4,692 nucleotides of DNA from a virus (Duplodnaviria > Heunggongvirae > Uroviricota > Caudoviricetes): positions 1 to 4,692 of the IMG/VR virus record IMGVR_UViG_2563366929_000001, one strand, 5' to 3'. A model generated the notes under the pieces. The model had not been told where the DNA came from and ran no database searches. It saw only the letters and a list, made by a program, of their open reading frames with translations. The position numbers were made by a program, and so were the translations under genes. Below, in pieces: positions 1 through 4,692 of the stretch (the first letter of the stretch is position 1; the number at the start of each line of letters is the position of its first letter).

Positions 1-41
1 CGTTGACGGACTTCGGGGGAAAAACGAGTATTTTTAGTCAT
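1..41 (-). CDS. IS3-family transposase OrfA, 5' partial (first 13 codons; remainder lies outside the window)
   Basis: ATG at 41..39 on the minus strand preceded by AGAGG; translation MTKNTRFSPEVRQ matches the IS629-type OrfA N-terminus as I recall it. Mirror image of 4652-4692. Confidence 0.7.
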   Translation of the reverse strand, partial: MTKNTRFSPEVRQ

Positions 42-95
42 CCTGTTTACCTCTTTCTCAGGAAGTTTAGTCTCCAGGATTCCCGGGGCGGTTCA
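1..95 (-). mobile_element. IS3-family insertion sequence (IS629-like), inward-facing orfA-proximal end; element continues beyond the window start
   Basis: Positions 1-95 are the exact reverse complement of 4598-4692 (checked base by base). Read on the minus strand the terminus starts TGAACCGCCCCGGG at position 95, followed by a Shine-Dalgarno and ATG at 41..39. I recognise the terminus and the MTKNTRFSPEVRQ N-terminus as IS629/IS1203-type from memory; no database search was run. Confidence 0.85.
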
Positions 96-134
96 GAGGG
101 TCATTATGGTGAATATGCTGGCTTGCTGGTGGGC

Positions 135-149
135 TATTCCTGCTCTTTA
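135..149. repeat. Direct repeat copy A: TATTCCTGCTCTTTA
   Basis: 15/15 identical to 393-407 on the same strand. Flanks add similarity (GG before, C-TTGC after), giving roughly 27 bp with a few mismatches. On the minus strand it reads KEQE plus a stop codon (TAG). Confidence 0.8.
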
Positions 150-391
150 ACATTGCCATGCCGCGATGTTTTCCAGGTATGCGACCCCATTTTTGTGTGC
201 CTGTACTCTTTAAGGAATTTCTCAAGGACAAACGCACAGGGCGCGAATCTGTCTGACTCATGCTCGTACGCTATCTTTCTGCGCTGTCTTTTCCGTGCCG
301 GTGATGGTGTATTGGTTGATTCTTTGTTGGTCATGGCGCTGCCCTGTAAAATAATGCACCGTAGTTCCTCACACCACGGCACCTATAGTGG

Positions 392-697
392 TTATTCCTG
401 CTCTTTAGCTTTGCGCCGCTGGAGTTCTTCACGCGCGACGGTGACGAGTTGCCCGATTTCCTCGGCAGCTTTGACTCCGATTTTTTCCACCTGCGCTAGG
501 GCATCGAGCGAAGAAACCAGGGGATTTTCTCCGCTTCCTTCTGCCTGGCGGCGGGCGATTTCACCGCGAACGGCTGTAATCACGAAAGCGGCTATTGTTT
601 CCCCTTCCGTTTTCGAATTTTCCATTTCCTCGATTACATCATGGGGGAAGCGGATATTTTTCATTTGCGATCTGCTGTTGATGTTTCCTGTTGCCAT
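392..697 (-). CDS. Small putative DNA-binding regulator, possibly ribbon-helix-helix (Arc/CopG-like); 101 aa, or 90 aa if translation starts at the ATG at 664
   Basis: Intact ORF divergent from the rightward operon. The segment NIRFPHDVIEEMEN followed by GETIAAFVITAVRGEIARR has the strand-then-helix pattern of Arc/Mnt-type proteins (compared from memory). Neither candidate start has a strong Shine-Dalgarno, so the start is uncertain. Fold assignment is inference. Confidence 0.5.
   Translation of the reverse strand: MATGNINSRSQMKNIRFPHDVIEEMENSKTEGETIAAFVITAVRGEIARRQAEGSGENPLVSSLDALAQVEKIGVKAAEEIGQLVTVAREELQRRKAKEQE
393..407. repeat. Direct repeat copy B: TATTCCTGCTCTTTA, overlapping the last codons of the 392-697 minus-strand gene
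   Basis: 15/15 identical to 135-149. On the minus strand it encodes the C-terminal KEQE of the regulator gene; the TAA stop is at 394..392. Confidence 0.8.
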
Positions 698-718
698 CAG
701 AATGTCCGGTTATTTTGA

Positions 719-737
719 GGTGTGTACACATTACACC
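719..737. repeat. Operator-like palindrome 1 (GGTGTGTACACATTACACC), core TGTGTACACA perfectly palindromic
   Basis: Seen directly; GGTGT at 719-723 and ACACC at 733-737 flank the 10-bp palindrome. Overlaps a candidate leftward extended -10 (minus strand TGgTGTAAT, plus coordinates 730-738). Confidence 0.5.
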
Positions 738-759
738 AAAAGGTGTGTTGATAAAACAC

Positions 760-789
760 TTGACACTGTAGCACACTTAAATTTAATTT
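760..789 (+). promoter_or_regulatory. Candidate sigma70 promoter for the rightward operon: -35 TTGACA (760-765), 18-bp spacer, -10 TAATTT (784-789)
   Basis: Perfect -35 consensus. The -10 matches the consensus T, A and final T positions only. Prediction by eye, not experimentally supported. Confidence 0.35.
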
Positions 790-821
790 GTATATACACC
801 AATTGTTGTGGTGTATATACA
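789..821. repeat. Operator-like palindrome 2: 12-bp perfect inverted repeat TGTATATACACC (789-800) / GGTGTATATACA (810-821), 9-bp spacer
   Basis: Exact reverse-complement arms; sits over the predicted -10 and start region of the rightward promoter. Confidence 0.55.
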
Positions 822-887
822 GCAACGCCCCGCAGTGGTGGCACACATGCAGGGCGTCTAACCAAACCGTTAAACGAGGTAACGATT

Positions 888-1253
888 ATGGCTGGAACAC
901 AGCATACCCAAACTCACCCTAAATTTATATACACCTTCCTGGCGGTGCACCGTGATTGCATTGCTGACGGTAAAAACACTGTACACGTAGCCGCCGATAC
1001 GCTGGTTGATGCCTGCGAGATGCTCAATGACATGGGCTATATCTCGGCAACATGGAAAGGGCGCGAAGAAAACACGCTGTTTATTCAGAAATGCGAAAAC
1101 AATTTTATCTGGCGTTTTATCGCCCTGAGTACGGCACAACCGCGCGTGATTCACATCGAGGCCACCAGCGAACAGGAAGCACGCCAGCAATCTCCTGATG
1201 GCTGCGTGATGGTATTCGCTGCCCGTATTCGCCAGGAGGTGGAGCATGTGTAA
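888..1253 (+). CDS. Hypothetical protein (121 aa), first gene of the rightward operon
   Basis: ATG at 888 with GAGG 8 nt upstream (876-879). The stop TAA (1251-1253) overlaps the next gene's ATG (1246) in the 8-nt pattern ATGTGTAA. The 3..1253 ORF in the track is the same frame, but only the part from 888 is credible. No family recognised. Confidence 0.65.
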   Translation: MAGTQHTQTHPKFIYTFLAVHRDCIADGKNTVHVAADTLVDACEMLNDMGYISATWKGREENTLFIQKCENNFIWRFIALSTAQPRVIHIEATSEQEARQQSPDGCVMVFAARIRQEVEHV

Positions 1254-1470
1254 TGCAACATGGCCTGATGCAGCGGTAGACGCTATCAAAACGCTGATGG
1301 ATTCACTTATTGAGATTTCTGCTATCGCTGGTGTGGCGCATAAACACGCAGCCAGAGAATCAGAATGCATCTCCCATTATTTAGCATTTGTGCAGCTAAA
1401 AGCCGATCAGGCACTGGATAAGGCCGGAAAAATTATCATGGCTGATGTGCAGGAGGTGCACCATGCATAA
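1246..1470 (+). CDS. Hypothetical small protein (74 aa); C-terminus (DVQEVHHA) resembles that of gene 4
   Basis: ATG at 1246 with AGGAGG (1234-1239) 6 nt upstream; 8-nt overlaps with both neighbours. Confidence 0.65.
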   Translation: MCNATWPDAAVDAIKTLMDSLIEISAIAGVAHKHAARESECISHYLAFVQLKADQALDKAGKIIMADVQEVHHA

Positions 1471-1828
1471 CCTGTCAATTTCTGACCTTAACAGCATTCA
1501 GTTTGACGAGAAATTTACCGGGCAGTTGCTGGTCAATGTGGAGAACGGGCGCATAGTGCGTAATTACCACCTGCCGGATGGTGCAATTGCCGGAAGCGTT
1601 GAAGCATTGCTGGAGCTGGCGGAACGTGCGCGACTGATTAAGCCGTCAACGTGCCATCACGATGATGATCTGCATTTTACCGGGTGTATGGTGAGTCACT
1701 ACGAAAACGGCGTTGAAGTATCCTGCGAACGTCTGCGTGATGATTGCTGTTTCGGCACACTGCCGGAATTTATCGAATTGCTGACCAGTTGCGGTTATCA
1801 GGTCATTCAGGGGGGTAAACATGCGTGA
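1463..1828 (+). CDS. Hypothetical protein (121 aa) made of two tandem copies of an FTG-motif domain; the C-terminal copy is Cys/His-rich
   Basis: ATG at 1463 with AGGAGG (1451-1456) 6 nt upstream, preferred over the track's ATG at 1445, which has no Shine-Dalgarno. Internal repeat FTGQLLVNVENGRIV / FTGCMVSHYENGVEV. Stop TGA at 1826-1828 overlaps the next ATG at 1821. Confidence 0.65.
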   Translation: MHNLSISDLNSIQFDEKFTGQLLVNVENGRIVRNYHLPDGAIAGSVEALLELAERARLIKPSTCHHDDDLHFTGCMVSHYENGVEVSCERLRDDCCFGTLPEFIELLTSCGYQVIQGGKHA

Positions 1829-2054
1829 TGATCGTTTTAATTCCCTGAAACAGGAGTTTGATGGCGCACCGGAAGATACATCGGGCGCATTGTTGAGCAT
1901 TGCTGACATGATGAAAGCTGCATATTTTCTTATCAATACCAGTGGCTACAAGTCAGAGGGTGAAATGATTCTTAGTATTGCGTCGGACTATGCTGAATAT
2001 GTGGCAGAGACGCGTTACAGAAGAAAATCTCTGGAGGATGTAAGCCATGCATAA
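1821..2054 (+). CDS. Hypothetical small protein (77 aa); C-terminus (LEDVSHA) resembles that of gene 2
   Basis: ATG at 1821 preceded by GGGGGT (1811-1816); 8-nt overlap ATGCATAA with the next gene. Confidence 0.6.
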   Translation: MRDDRFNSLKQEFDGAPEDTSGALLSIADMMKAAYFLINTSGYKSEGEMILSIASDYAEYVAETRYRRKSLEDVSHA

Positions 2055-2247
2055 TCATGAAGCGCATGTACCCGTAGTGCTTAATGTGCCAGATGATTTC
2101 ACCGGACGCGTGCTGGTTTACCTGGATAAAGGGAAAGTGAAATCACAATGCCGACTGAAAAGTAATGAGATTGTTGGTTCTCCTGAATTTTTTTCTGAAC
2201 TTTGTATTCGTGCGGAAATAAAACCGGAACTGCTGACAGGAAAATAA
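2047..2247 (+). CDS. Hypothetical small protein (66 aa), single-copy FTG-motif domain paralogous to both halves of gene 3
   Basis: ATG at 2047 with GGAGGA (2033-2038) 8 nt upstream. By-eye alignment to the gene 3 N-terminal domain gives about 40% identity over ~44 residues (FTGRVLVYLDKGKV..., ...ELCIRAEIKP versus ...ELAERARLIKP). Confidence 0.65.
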   Translation: MHNHEAHVPVVLNVPDDFTGRVLVYLDKGKVKSQCRLKSNEIVGSPEFFSELCIRAEIKPELLTGK

Positions 2248-2251
2248 AACC

Positions 2252-2542
2252 ATGAAAAAGAAATATTCTGGCTTTACTGCCAGCGGCCTCTCTCGGCCTG
2301 AAATCCGCCCCGGTGATATTTTCCGGGACACCAGACGCGGGGGACGGGTGGTTATTCGTCACGTTACGCCAGGCAATATCACCTACCGCCGTGAGGCTTA
2401 CGAATATGACTGCGTAATGCCGCGCCGTCAGTTTGAGCGTGATTTTATTCTGGTGGAAAACAAACAACAGGCAGTGGCGAGACGTGCAGCCACGAATATT
2501 AAAAAAATCCGGGCAATGTTGGTTGCGGGAGGTAAGAAGTGA
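2252..2542 (+). CDS. Hypothetical basic small protein (96 aa); loosely reminiscent of DUF4222-type prophage proteins (low confidence)
   Basis: ATG at 2252, 4 nt after the previous stop, with only a weak Shine-Dalgarno (AGGA about 11 nt upstream). Stop TGA (2540-2542) overlaps the GTG start of the replication gene. The family hint comes from a remembered RPGD...RRG...V pattern, not a search. Confidence 0.55.
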   Translation: MKKKYSGFTASGLSRPEIRPGDIFRDTRRGGRVVIRHVTPGNITYRREAYEYDCVMPRRQFERDFILVENKQQAVARRAATNIKKIRAMLVAGGKK

Positions 2543-4344
2543 AAAACGCACCGAATTTAAAATATCAGCCGAAGGATAAATTCACCGAGGTAATCATTTT
2601 TGCCGGGACGGATGCTTACGCCCATGCTCAACACTGGATTGAAAGCGAAGGACGAAAACACGGCGATAACGTGCCTCCTGTTTACCTGGGGCCAAAGCAA
2701 CTGGCAGACCTGGCGAATATCCGCATTGTCGACGATGAACGCCGCTTTGCGCGTGTCTATCTCGCGGGGGAGATAGAGCCAATCCAGATCAATGCTATTG
2801 CTGAAAAGCTGGCGCTGGCTGGTGTACAGGACGCGAAATTATACAAAGGTATCACCGACCGGGAGCCGGAAAACTGGCGCGACTACCTGCAACGGATCCG
2901 CGAACAGGCAGAGAGTGGGGAAGTTTCAGCGATGAAATTAGCCACAAAAAATATTGACCTATCCAGGCCAGCACTAAATCAGATGGGAGCCAGCCAGAGA
3001 GGGGAAGTGTTACTTGAATATTATGGAAGAGCACTGGCTATAAATGATGATTCTGATGTAGTTCACCATTACAACGGAATTGTCTGGGTGCCTGTATCTG
3101 ATAAGGAACTCCAGCGGTCTATGGCGAAGATTTTTATTGATGCTGGAATCAGTTATTCGCAAAACGCCATTAAATTTGCCGTAGACACAATGAAATTGAG
3201 CCTGCCTGTTATGGGCGGGGCAGACAGGAATCTTATTGGATTCAGTAACGGGGTATTTGATACCCGGACGGGAAATTTTCGGGAGCATAACAAAAATGAC
3301 TGGTTGTTAAATGCCAGTGAATTACCGTTCAGCCCACCAGCAGAGGGGGAAACGCTGGCAACACATGCGCCGAATTTCTGGAAGTGGCTGCGTCGTTCGG
3401 TGGCAGATAATGATCGTAAAGCTGATCGCGTACTGGCGGCATTATTCATGGTACTGGCGAACCGGTACGACTGGCAGTTATTCCTTGAGGTAACAGGCCC
3501 AGGCGGAAGCGGTAAAAGTGTGATGGCTGAGATTTGTACCATGCTGGCGGGTAAGGCCAACACAGTATCGGCAAGCATGAAGGCTCTGGAAGACGCAAGG
3601 GAACGCGCGTTAGTAGTTGGCTTTTCGCTGATTATCATGCCGGATATGACTCGCTACGCTGGCGATGGTGCAGGAATTAAGGCAATTACTGGCGGCGACA
3701 AGGTGGCAATTGATCCGAAACATAAAGCCCCCTACTCCACACGTATTCCGGCAGTAGTGCTTGCGGTAAACAATAACGCCATGTCATTCAGTGACCGAAG
3801 CGGGGGGATCTCGCGTCGTAGGGTGATATTTAATTTCTCTGAGGTCGTACCGGAGAACGAACGCGATCCCATGCTGGCGGAAAAGATAGAAGGCGAACTG
3901 GCGGTAGTGATTCGCCATTTGCTAACACGATTTACCGACCAGGACGAAGCTAAAAGACTACTTTATGAGCAGCAAAAATCAGAAGAAGCGCTGTTGATAA
4001 AGCGCGAAGGTGATTCACTGGTGGACTTTTGCGGCTATCTGATGTCGTTGGTTAAATGTGAAGGAATGATGGTGGGCAATGCGGAAATAGTGCCATTTAG
4101 CCCGAGGCGATACCTGTATCATGCTTATTTAGCCTATATGTCAGCGCATGGCCTGGGAAAACCAGTATCACTGACACGCTTTGGTACTGATATGCCAGGA
4201 GCTATGGCGGAATACGGAAAGGAGTATAAGCGGGCTAAATGCACTAAAGGCCCGGATAAAGGGCGAGTGATAACAAATGTTCTGTTAGATGATGATGCTG
4301 ATGGCTGGTTGCCAGCAGCTACAGGGATTAACGACAGAACATAA
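2539..4344 (+). CDS. Replication protein with P4 alpha / D5-type SF3 helicase (NTPase) C-terminal domain; putative primase-helicase/replication initiator of the element (601 aa, GTG start)
   Basis: Walker A motif GPGGSGKS (nt 3496-3519). Downstream ITGGDKVAIDPKHK (from nt 3685) followed by VVLAVNNN resembles the conserved motifs of the phage/plasmid primase P4-family C-terminal domain as I recall them. GTG at 2539 with GGAGG (2528-2532) 6 nt upstream; the first in-frame ATG is ~130 codons downstream, so GTG is the likely start. I did not recognise a canonical Toprim EGxxD motif in the N-terminal ~320 aa. Confidence 0.85.
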   Translation: MKNAPNLKYQPKDKFTEVIIFAGTDAYAHAQHWIESEGRKHGDNVPPVYLGPKQLADLANIRIVDDERRFARVYLAGEIEPIQINAIAEKLALAGVQDAKLYKGITDREPENWRDYLQRIREQAESGEVSAMKLATKNIDLSRPALNQMGASQRGEVLLEYYGRALAINDDSDVVHHYNGIVWVPVSDKELQRSMAKIFIDAGISYSQNAIKFAVDTMKLSLPVMGGADRNLIGFSNGVFDTRTGNFREHNKNDWLLNASELPFSPPAEGETLATHAPNFWKWLRRSVADNDRKADRVLAALFMVLANRYDWQLFLEVTGPGGSGKSVMAEICTMLAGKANTVSASMKALEDARERALVVGFSLIIMPDMTRYAGDGAGIKAITGGDKVAIDPKHKAPYSTRIPAVVLAVNNNAMSFSDRSGGISRRRVIFNFSEVVPENERDPMLAEKIEGELAVVIRHLLTRFTDQDEAKRLLYEQQKSEEALLIKREGDSLVDFCGYLMSLVKCEGMMVGNAEIVPFSPRRYLYHAYLAYMSAHGLGKPVSLTRFGTDMPGAMAEYGKEYKRAKCTKGPDKGRVITNVLLDDDADGWLPAATGINDRT

Positions 4345-4371
4345 TACGAAATTTATAAGCTGAAACGTAAA

Positions 4372-4572
4372 GGTAGACGGTTGGTAGACAGATTCACTTA
4401 ACCCTCTACCAACCATCTACCAATTAATATTTTGAATTATAAAGATATTTTCAATGTGGTAGAGAGGTAGACAGTTATTTCTATATTCCTAAACCACGGG
4501 GGGTATATAAAAAACAGATAGTTAAGGGGGCATTTTTTAAATTTCTCTTTTAACTGTCTACACTGTCTACCA
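4372..4572. repeat. Iteron array and AT-rich tracts directly downstream of the replication gene; candidate origin of replication (P4 crr/ori analogue)
   Basis: GGTAGA(C/G) in forward orientation at 4372, 4383, 4458 and 4466 (two as GGTAGACAG). Reverse-complement copies at 4405-4410, 4416-4421 and a tandem 9-mer pair ACTGTCTAC at 4553-4561 and 4562-4570. Several pairs are spaced 11 bp apart, about one helical turn. AT-rich stretches at 4421-4457 and 4476-4553. Confidence 0.6.
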
Positions 4573-4597
4573 TTTAGTAAAAATCATTAATTATCAA

Positions 4598-4692
4598 TGA
4601 ACCGCCCCGGGAATCCTGGAGACTAAACTTCCTGAGAAAGAGGTAAACAGGATGACTAAAAATACTCGTTTTTCCCCCGAAGTCCGTCAACG
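4598..4692 (+). mobile_element. IS3-family insertion sequence (IS629-like), inward-facing orfA-proximal end; element continues beyond the window end
   Basis: TGAACCGCCCCGGGAATCCTGGAGACTAAACTTCC... begins at 4598, with Shine-Dalgarno AGAGG and ATG at 4652. Exact reverse complement of 1-95. Confidence 0.85.
4652..4692 (+). CDS. IS3-family transposase OrfA, 5' partial (first 13 codons)
   Basis: ATG at 4652; translation MTKNTRFSPEVRQ, then the window ends. Confidence 0.7.
   Translation, partial: MTKNTRFSPEVRQ

Follow-up and report, generated by a model that had tools for sequence, protein, structure and literature searches.

A long-form YlcI/YnfO protein as the predicted autoregulated repressor of the replication operon in a PICI-like island at thrW of Escherichia coli

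How is the replication operon of a satellite-like island kept under control, and does the small gene that faces away from it have a part in this? The question is raised by a 4692 nt stretch of viral DNA, here called the window (IMG/VR record IMGVR_UViG_2563366929_000001, positions 1–4692). The original prediction, made from the letters of the sequence, was of a leftward gene for a protein of approximately 90–100 aa with a possible ribbon-helix-helix (RHH) N-terminus, divergent from a replication operon and acting as an autoregulated switch on palindromes located over both promoters. The explanation we favour, with a probability of about 0.7, is that this gene encodes an autoregulated RHH repressor that would act at operators over both promoters and shut off the icd-like-to-primase operon of a PICI-like island at thrW. 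Sequence comparisons are the basis on which we infer binding, the oligomeric state, autoregulation and a repressing rather than an activating effect.

Several E. coli chromosomes were found to be 100% identical to the window over positions 100–4560. In the intact copy (locus L001, strain FDAARGOS_1301), the segment lies inside an island at the tRNA-Thr gene thrW, adjoining proA. The ends of the window, 1–95 and 4598–4692, are inverted copies of an IS3-family end, and the left junction at 95/96 is not present in L001. The L001 island begins with genes for an integrase, a hypothetical protein, a 65 aa HTH (AlpA-like) protein and an AntA/B antirepressor. These are followed by two leftward genes, a small ORF and a YlcI/YnfO-family gene, and then by the rightward icd-like gene, small ORFs, DUF4222 and a gene for a 601 aa D5_N/DUF5906/P4-type primase-helicase. 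Accessory and defence genes lie beyond the primase-helicase gene, and then a MarR-vat island. In the window, the rightward genes span 888–4344 and comprise icd-like (888–1253), four small ORFs (1246–2247), DUF4222 (2252–2542) and the primase-helicase gene (2539–4344), all on the forward strand. In keeping with the replication operon that had been proposed, they make up a single rightward operon ending in the D5/P4-type primase-helicase, with six of the seven genes joined by overlapping start and stop codons. A literature search on Icd-like and DUF4222 proteins, and on RHH repressors in PICIs, found no functional study.

Gram-negative PICIs have been described as unidirectional and AlpA-activated. 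Their hallmarks, an integrase with a dedicated att site, an alpA gene, pri-rep and a 3′ origin, are present in L001 and in a second island at thrW, L024, and no phage structural genes were found in either. However, the island is not unidirectionally rightward and free of a divergent regulator, as both the regulator gene and the small ORF that follows point leftward. EcCIMP1, a characterised PICI at thrW, works through AlpA (PMC11773190). The island shares with it the tRNA-Thr site, a near-identical integrase and the same neighbourhood, and resembles both EcCICFT073 and EcCIMP1 in having an AlpA-like gene, an AntA/B gene, a primase and origin-like 3′ iterons and in being without structural genes. 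In contrast to the island with its divergent regulator, EcCIMP1 is unidirectional and has no YlcI-like gene, and its primase is of the TOPRIM-DUF927 rather than the D5/P4 type. The iterons in the window are eight copies of GGTAGAC in an A+T-rich cluster at 4369–4574, 3′ of the primase gene, which is the usual position of the PICI origin. We therefore rejected a replication origin within the region between the regulator gene and the operon.

The regulator gene is the ORF at 392–697 on the complementary strand and encodes 101 aa, in line with the predicted size. The protein matches the NCBIfam model NF041551 (YlcI/YnfO, formerly DUF3950) at 64.2 bits against a cutoff of 30, with the whole 42-position model aligned to residues 9–50. 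RefSeq also annotates it as YlcI/YnfO, and it matches PHROG 6522 with an E value of 9e-49. Both families are without known function, and a literature search found no functional study of YlcI/YnfO/DUF3950. An AF2 model of the monomer, built from 25 homologues and with a mean pLDDT of 80.5, has residues 12–18 extended and helices at residues 19–28, 35–54 and 59–100, and so includes the beta-alpha-alpha fold of the RHH (CopG/Arc/MetJ) superfamily. Judged by this model, the regulator is an RHH protein, in our reading a sequence-specific one, with its beta-alpha-alpha domain at residues 12–54 or thereabouts, and the RHH N-terminus that had been suspected is supported by both the family and the fold. 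The conserved helix at residues 59–100 is long and amphipathic (pLDDT 82–94) and probably joins RHH dimers into a higher oligomer. A weak match to the helix-hairpin-helix of Hef in residues 45–86 (E value 0.012) was deemed spurious, as the model shows a single continuous confident helix.

Searches with the protein sequence placed it close to no characterised RHH protein. No Pfam RHH model scored above threshold, the best being PF07704 (Rv0623-like antitoxin) at 18.8 bits against a cutoff of 28.3, and a PDB sequence search found no RHH protein at E < 1. The strand motif KNIRFPHDV is in register with FNFRMPMEV of phage P22 Mnt, the sequence of which was verified against 1mnt. There is nonetheless no significant sequence relationship to P22 Mnt or Arc, as the Pfam Arc model was not matched, and hhalign aligned the regulator with Mnt over 13 columns with a non-significant probability of 1.7%, the N-h-R-h-P strand motif being all that they have in common. 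Arc carries the same strand motif (FNLRWPREV).

Alignment of the homologues, which occur across Enterobacterales, revealed a two-part protein. Residues 45–101 are nearly invariant, whereas residues 2–40 are found as discrete variants in which R16 and P18 are invariant. Codons 1–44 (566–697, complementary strand) thus form a variable RHH DNA-binding cassette and codons 45–101 (392–565) a highly conserved helical C-terminal part, with a mosaic boundary at approximately 566. The family is small, with 82 representatives at 50% identity among 1.84 billion proteins. Most are the short form of 55–65 aa, and full-length long forms account for approximately 10 of the 82. Compared with the short form typical of lambdoid prophages, the regulator has an extra conserved helical C-terminus of 55 aa, and the context of the long form is a satellite-like island. 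A YlcI-type gene was found in 654 of 5426 complete E. coli genomes, among them Nissle 1917, as well as across Enterobacterales.

A strict sigma-70 consensus scan of 698–887 found no promoter, and the promoters were therefore defined from conservation between loci. The comparison included 28 loci, made up of E. coli loci, loci in other genera and contigs. The first 21 were from E. coli, Salmonella, Enterobacter, Erwinia, Pantoea, Xenorhabdus, Photorhabdus and others, and seven further E. coli loci were added later. The rightward promoter, PR, has a −35 TTGACA at 760–765, and TTGAC-N recurs at a constant distance from the regulator start codon in 23 of the 28 loci. Its −10, TAATTT at 784–789, follows after an 18 nt spacer (or, alternatively, TTAATT at 783–788 after 17 nt). 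A TAnnnT hexamer is located 18 nt past the −35 in all eight loci of the window's class (see below) and 17 nt past it in nearly all of the other loci. On the complementary strand, the candidate leftward −10 is TAATGT at 733→728, with an extended −10, TGgTGTAAT at 738→730, as the alternative; no recognisable −35 was found for this promoter. All but one of the 28 loci have a leftward TAnnnT at this offset, and in most of them it is TATACT, TATAAT, TATATT or TATAGT in place of the TAATGT of the window. Both −10 hexamers in the window are weak, matching the consensus at three of six positions.

Around these promoters, GGTGT or ACACC occurs at 719, 733, 742, 796 and 810, and 5 of the 12 GGTGT copies in the window lie within 719–814. 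The heptad GGTGTRT was observed seven times in the window against 0.74 expected, a number reached in none of 200 shuffles, and four of the seven copies lie within 719–816. The two palindromes of the original prediction are both real and non-random. GGTGT(719)...ACACC(733) and ACACC(733)-N4-GGTGT(742) are both present, and TGTATATACACCA-N7-TGGTGTATATACA (789–801/809–821) is an inverted repeat with 13/13 complementary positions. However, the pattern that is conserved is not a pair of palindromes but a set of four to five phased units. In the window there are five pseudo-palindromes of approximately 10 bp (GTGTRYAYAC-like, with the core GGTGTRT), with centres about 23 bp (21–24 bp) apart. U1 (GGTGTGTACAC, 719–729) lies just past the leftward −10, where leftward transcription is likely to start. 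U2 (GGTGTGTTGAT, 742–752) is in the leftward promoter spacer and 8 nt upstream of the PR −35. U3 (TGTAGCACACT, 767–777), which is imperfect (reverse complement AGTGTGC), is inside the PR spacer. U4 (TGTATATACACC, 789–800) and U5 (GGTGTATATACA, 810–821) lie in the arms of the perfect 13 nt inverted repeat at 789–821, which covers the predicted PR start (about 795–797) and the first 25 nt of the transcript. The conserved leftward TAnnnT is situated between U1 and U2, and the repeats do overlie core elements of both divergent promoters, as had been claimed. For PR, a palindrome over both the −10 and the start had been proposed; the start is covered, but the 13 nt repeat begins right after the −10. 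A LexA box in 805–822 was rejected by eye, as CTGT-N8-ACAG does not fit.

The 28 loci share a common layout. Starting from the regulator start codon, the first and second units flank the leftward TAnnnT, an A-rich 8-mer and TTGAC-N come next, and the third and fourth units lie on either side of a TAnnnT that is 17 or 18 nt past the −35. Then follow hairpin 1, a G+C-rich hairpin 2, CTAACCA, hairpin 3 with the Shine-Dalgarno sequence and the first rightward gene. When the first 21 loci were searched de novo for 7-mers, the commonest word was usually found at about −40, −15, +6 and +30 from the PR −35. The class consensus words in these loci are at −41/−39, −18/−16, +6/+11 and +28/+34, and often at approximately +50 too; the seven further E. 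coli loci have the same units. Within the window's class, which includes eight loci from at least five genera, the units and the promoter hexamers are conserved and the sequence between them drifts. The U1 GGTGTGT is kept at −41 in seven of the eight, U2 at −18 in loci of this class and U4 at +34 in seven of the eight. At the U3 position, loci of this class have GCACACC or ACACACT at +11, and other classes have their own units at +6. A unit at about +50 was found in six loci belonging to four classes. The conserved half of the unit is oriented > > | < < in the window's class but alternates as > < > < in others, which makes the binding geometry uncertain.

Six classes of unit correspond to six classes of residues in the predicted beta strand, without exception in the 28 loci. 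GGTGTGT, the unit of the window's class, goes with the strand KN[IV]R[FIV]P, TGTGATTC (the class of L002) with ISIRIP, TATATCAC with TT[IL]RVP, TGTAAGAC with LTARIP, TGTGTTTCA with TTVRVP and GGGATTCA with INARFP. The cross-matrix of unit words is diagonal save for words with a common TGTG core, and pairings of unit and strand found in E. coli recur unchanged in Xenorhabdus or Photorhabdus and in Enterobacter. The most direct comparison is between L001 and L024. The integrase, AlpA-like, Icd-like and ORF74 proteins of these islands are identical and their DNA is 93–100% identical, except across window positions of approximately 566–855, which hold regulator codons 1–44 and the control region. 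There the repeats are wholly different, with GGTGTRT units in one and TGTGATTC units in the other. As the same four proteins coexist with different repeats, we conclude that none of the four reads them, and the AlpA-like and Icd-like proteins were ruled out as readers.

The strand residues 12, 14 and 16 (here M-N-R, motif N-I-R-F-P) and the unit sequence thus appear to be exchanged together as a cassette, and this exchange would create at least six specificity classes among related islands. Linkage alone could explain some of the covariation, the N-terminal cassette and the repeats being situated within 130 bp. The region is not one indivisible block, since the type of loop in hairpin 2 is independent of operator class, as seen in the pairs L003/L034 and L004/L005. 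For the same reason, the hairpin 2 loop was rejected as a part of the specificity cassette.

What the analysis shows in silico is the fold, the repeats and where they lie with respect to the conserved promoter hexamers, together with the covariation. In the mechanism that we propose, the regulator would be made from the weak leftward promoter and would bind the five-unit array. With U3 and U4 bracketing the PR −10 and U4–U5 covering the start, occupancy would exclude RNA polymerase, and the operon from icd-like through DUF4222 to the primase-helicase gene would be silent while the island is integrated. Such silencing makes sense for an operon that begins with an Icd-like division inhibitor and ends with a primase-helicase. 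U1 and U2, which bracket the leftward −10, would provide negative autoregulation. For the lifting of repression there are two candidates. The invariance of the C-terminal part suggests a protein inducer, and a helper-phage or island protein might bind there. In many loci the alpA gene is convergent on the regulator gene, which suggests read-through or antisense interference as another route, such that AlpA-driven transcription would converge on the regulator gene and read into the operon.

The alternative that survives best, though we consider it unlikely, is that the regulator binds the repeats but is an activator, or a Cro-like or late modulator, and that AlpA is the sole master switch. In EcCICFT073 and EcCIMP1, AlpA has been demonstrated to be the master activator, an AlpA-like gene was found in the compared islands, often convergent with the regulator gene, and U2 is just upstream of the PR −35, a site used by activators. 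However, the PR spacer and the start, where units are located, are classic repressor positions. Further, the near-consensus PR −35 does not give PR the look of an activator-dependent promoter, and the first gene under control, for an Icd-like division inhibitor, needs tight silencing.

Downstream of the PR start, the repeats have to be considered as RNA as well. The sequence from 789 to 887 folds into three hairpins with a ΔG of −43.1 kcal/mol (z = −3.9), better than 200/200 shuffles. The inverted repeat at 789–821 also folds, as the 13 bp 5′ hairpin of this leader. A hairpin starting at the CACC of the last unit is present in all classes, and as U4–U5 coincide with it the 13 nt palindrome may be partly selected as RNA. 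Hairpin 2 (825–857, forward strand) has a G+C-rich stem, ACGCCCCGCA/TGCAGGGCGT, with an inner stem-loop, and the conserved CTAACCA is at 858–864. In 19 loci, its outer stem is invariant and its inner stem exhibits compensatory changes. Hairpin 3 (868–884, forward strand; CGTTA-AACGAGG-TAACG) carries the icd-like Shine-Dalgarno sequence, GAGG, in its loop, and compensatory double changes were found in four of its five pairs across these loci. The same leader is found in phage mEp460 with a truncated icd-like ORF. We conclude that the leader probably adds a post-transcriptional layer.

An icd-like first gene after a structured conserved leader recalls the P1, N15 and P4 immI-type icd-ant operons, which have C4/CA/CI antisense RNAs. 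Unlike them, the window has a candidate protein repressor. It lacks a match to Rfam C4 (RF01695) or to any other known family for the leader at E ≤ 10, whether the whole window or 690–960 (271 nt) was used as the query. The only nearby match, to R1162 antisense, was non-significant at 17.9 bits against 55, and no conserved complementarity of 7 nt or more was found between the leader hairpin and nearby sequence. A C4/CI-type antisense RNA ahead of icd was therefore ruled out. The folding of the leader, the hairpin at the last unit in all classes and the compensatory changes in hairpins 2 and 3 would also fit palindromes that act mainly in RNA, forming a 5′ stem-loop or an attenuator in the icd-like leader, or that are recombination scars, with the job of the regulator unrelated to them. 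We regard this as rather less likely still, as U1–U3, which precede the predicted start, cannot belong to a leader RNA, class-specific units lie at fixed positions on both sides of the −35, and, with the −35 where it is, the 13 nt arms reach back approximately 6 nt beyond any plausible start.

Directly downstream of the regulator gene, and possibly co-transcribed with it, is a small basic ORF on the complementary strand (134–382; phrog_21027) of 82 aa from a GTG at 382, or 66 aa from an ATG at 334 as annotated. This position, the conservation of the ORF in several E. coli loci and the weak Pfam match to the Rv0623-like antitoxin family raise the possibility that the regulator is an RHH antitoxin autoregulating a two-gene operon, with the small ORF as the toxin and the adjacent replication operon incidental. 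We consider this improbable. In tblastn comparisons the small ORF was found only in L001, L002, L004–L007 and L024 (7 of 27 loci compared), and in L018, L020 and L023 the regulator gene is followed directly by a convergent AlpA-family gene. Family scans found no match of the ORF to a toxin family, and half of the units are over the divergent promoter, where a toxin-antitoxin module would have no need of them. With the partner ORF not conserved, a toxin-antitoxin module was rejected.

That the repeats, for instance as an origin or an AlpA box, are read by another protein (AlpA-like, Icd-like, primase or host) is the least probable explanation, even though repeats near replication genes are often iterons and AlpA proteins bind upstream of PICI operons, because L001 and L024 have different repeats with identical candidate readers, the iterons form a separate cluster at the usual origin position and six repeat classes are beyond what a host factor can explain.

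The preferred explanation, an autoregulated RHH repressor, has several precedents. In P22 immI (Mnt and Arc; Pmnt/Pant), a small RHH repressor is likewise divergent from the operon that it silences and the operator overlaps the promoter core, where the window has predicted units. Mnt also resembles the regulator in architecture, with an N-terminal RHH and a C-terminal helical oligomerisation domain (PDB 1mnt, 1qey). In contrast, P22 has one compact operator of 17–21 bp rather than four to five units approximately 23 bp apart, the operon controlled is ant rather than replication and icd-like genes, and the window is without a second, Arc-like repressor. NikR, CopG (pMV158) and omega (pSM19035) are RHH proteins whose dimers read short repeats, as proposed here. 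CopG acts on a replication-initiator operon by repressing its promoter, omega accepts non-palindromic heptads whichever way they are oriented, and in NikR two RHH dimers are joined via a central domain. The half-sites of the NikR operator are about two helical turns apart, like those in the window, at 21–25 bp. By analogy, this spacing and the long C-terminal helix suggest a tetramer of two RHH dimers, as for Mnt or NikR. The regulator differs from these proteins in that it has no ligand-binding domain, its units are non-contiguous, unlike the omega heptads, and its gene is divergent from the regulated operon and not inside it.

A likeness to the master repressors of satellites had also been suggested. 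In SaPIs and other Gram-positive PICIs, the gene for the repressor Stl (Rpr) faces away from the satellite excision and replication operon (stl-str), as it does in the window, and allelic diversity of repressor specificity is expected in both. Stl proteins are not known to be RHH proteins. No family scan of the regulator (Pfam, NCBIfam, PHROG) suggested Stl; the regulator appears unrelated to it, and the likeness is a functional analogy only.

In the PICI literature, the global repressor of Gram-negative elements has been called "unclear". The logic of the switch described here is textbook, and what would be new is a repressor role for the uncharacterised long form of YlcI/YnfO. The more far-reaching reading, that long-form YlcI proteins are the missing master repressors of a large Gram-negative PICI-like branch with at least six immunity groups, we put forward tentatively and consider rather doubtful at present. 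Under that broader reading, the invariant C-terminal helix would sense either a helper phage or the AlpA/antirepressor circuit of the island itself or, in an excludon-like arrangement, converging AlpA-driven transcription would silence the regulator gene and read into the replication operon. The present analysis provides a concrete candidate repressor, with predicted operators, for Gram-negative PICI-like islands, a testable code of recognition in which the sequence of the unit depends on beta-strand residues 12, 14 and 16, and naturally occurring specificity-swap pairs for use in experiments. It bears on an open point in satellite biology and is directly testable. If true, it would be the first functional hypothesis for the YlcI/YnfO family, and one would expect satellites to fall into immunity groups in the way that lambdoid phages do.

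The region directly upstream of the icd-like gene, from 789 to 887, forms a leader that is both conserved and structured. It includes three hairpins, at 789-821, 825-857 and 868-884, with the sequence CTAACCA (858-864) lying between the second and the third, and the Shine-Dalgarno sequence is found in the loop of hairpin 3. Comparison of 19 loci revealed compensatory changes in hairpin 3 and in the inner stem of hairpin 2. The leader did not match any family in Rfam. The same leader, made up of hairpin 2, CTGACCA and hairpin 3, is present in the lambdoid phage mEp460_ev081 (1470-1580), where it is accompanied by a truncated icd-like ORF of approximately 14 codons. Neither is annotated, and both precede a hok/sok-type locus, in which sok scored 115 bits. 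Similar matches were found in a Morganella phage and in a 106 kb Klebsiella phage.

Additional copies of GGTGTAT occur beyond the control region, at 306-312 and 929-935. The second is part of TTTATATACACC (924-935), which is within the icd-like gene and shares 11 of its 12 positions with operator unit U4. As an island with another operator class carries an identical icd-like gene, this resemblance is probably due to chance, though the copy could still be a distal site.

Residues 45-86 of the regulator (440-565 in the window) gave a weak helix-hairpin-helix-like match to the HhH domain of the Hef nuclease (E = 0.012). As the AF2 model predicts a single continuous helix for these residues, the match is probably spurious. 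Downstream of the regulator gene, the small basic ORF (134-382, minus strand) is conserved in just a subset of the E. coli loci, and a terminator-like hairpin (356-382, minus strand) is found between the two. The small basic ORF and the regulator gene have identical 15 nt ends (135-149 and 393-407; TATTCCTGCTCTTTA, encoding ...KEQE-stop), which resemble a scar left by duplication or recombination.

The primase-helicase gene is followed immediately on its 3' side by an origin-like cluster (4369-4574) of eight GGTAGAC-type iterons, which are in both orientations and separated by A+T-rich spacers. The ends of the window, 1-95 and 4598-4692, are inverted copies of one end of an IS3-family insertion sequence, which we take to be IS629-like. 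The left junction (95/96) is absent from the otherwise identical copy in E. coli FDAARGOS_1301. Therefore, either an additional IS copy in the source genome splits this module off from int, alpA and ant, or the end of the contig arose as an artefact of assembly.

The module 3' of the switch is also mosaic, as seen when loci L004 and L006 are compared with the window, and in L018 and L020. The Icd-like protein varies in length between 66 and 121 aa, and in some loci an Ash-family gene is the first gene of the module. Two kinds of replication protein occur, a D5/P4-type primase and, alternatively, a RepA-family helicase. In many islands, including L020, L023, L032 and similar loci, an alpA-family gene faces the regulator gene head-on, with no gene between them. 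This convergent arrangement could favour interference between the two transcripts, or transcription that reads on into the replication operon.
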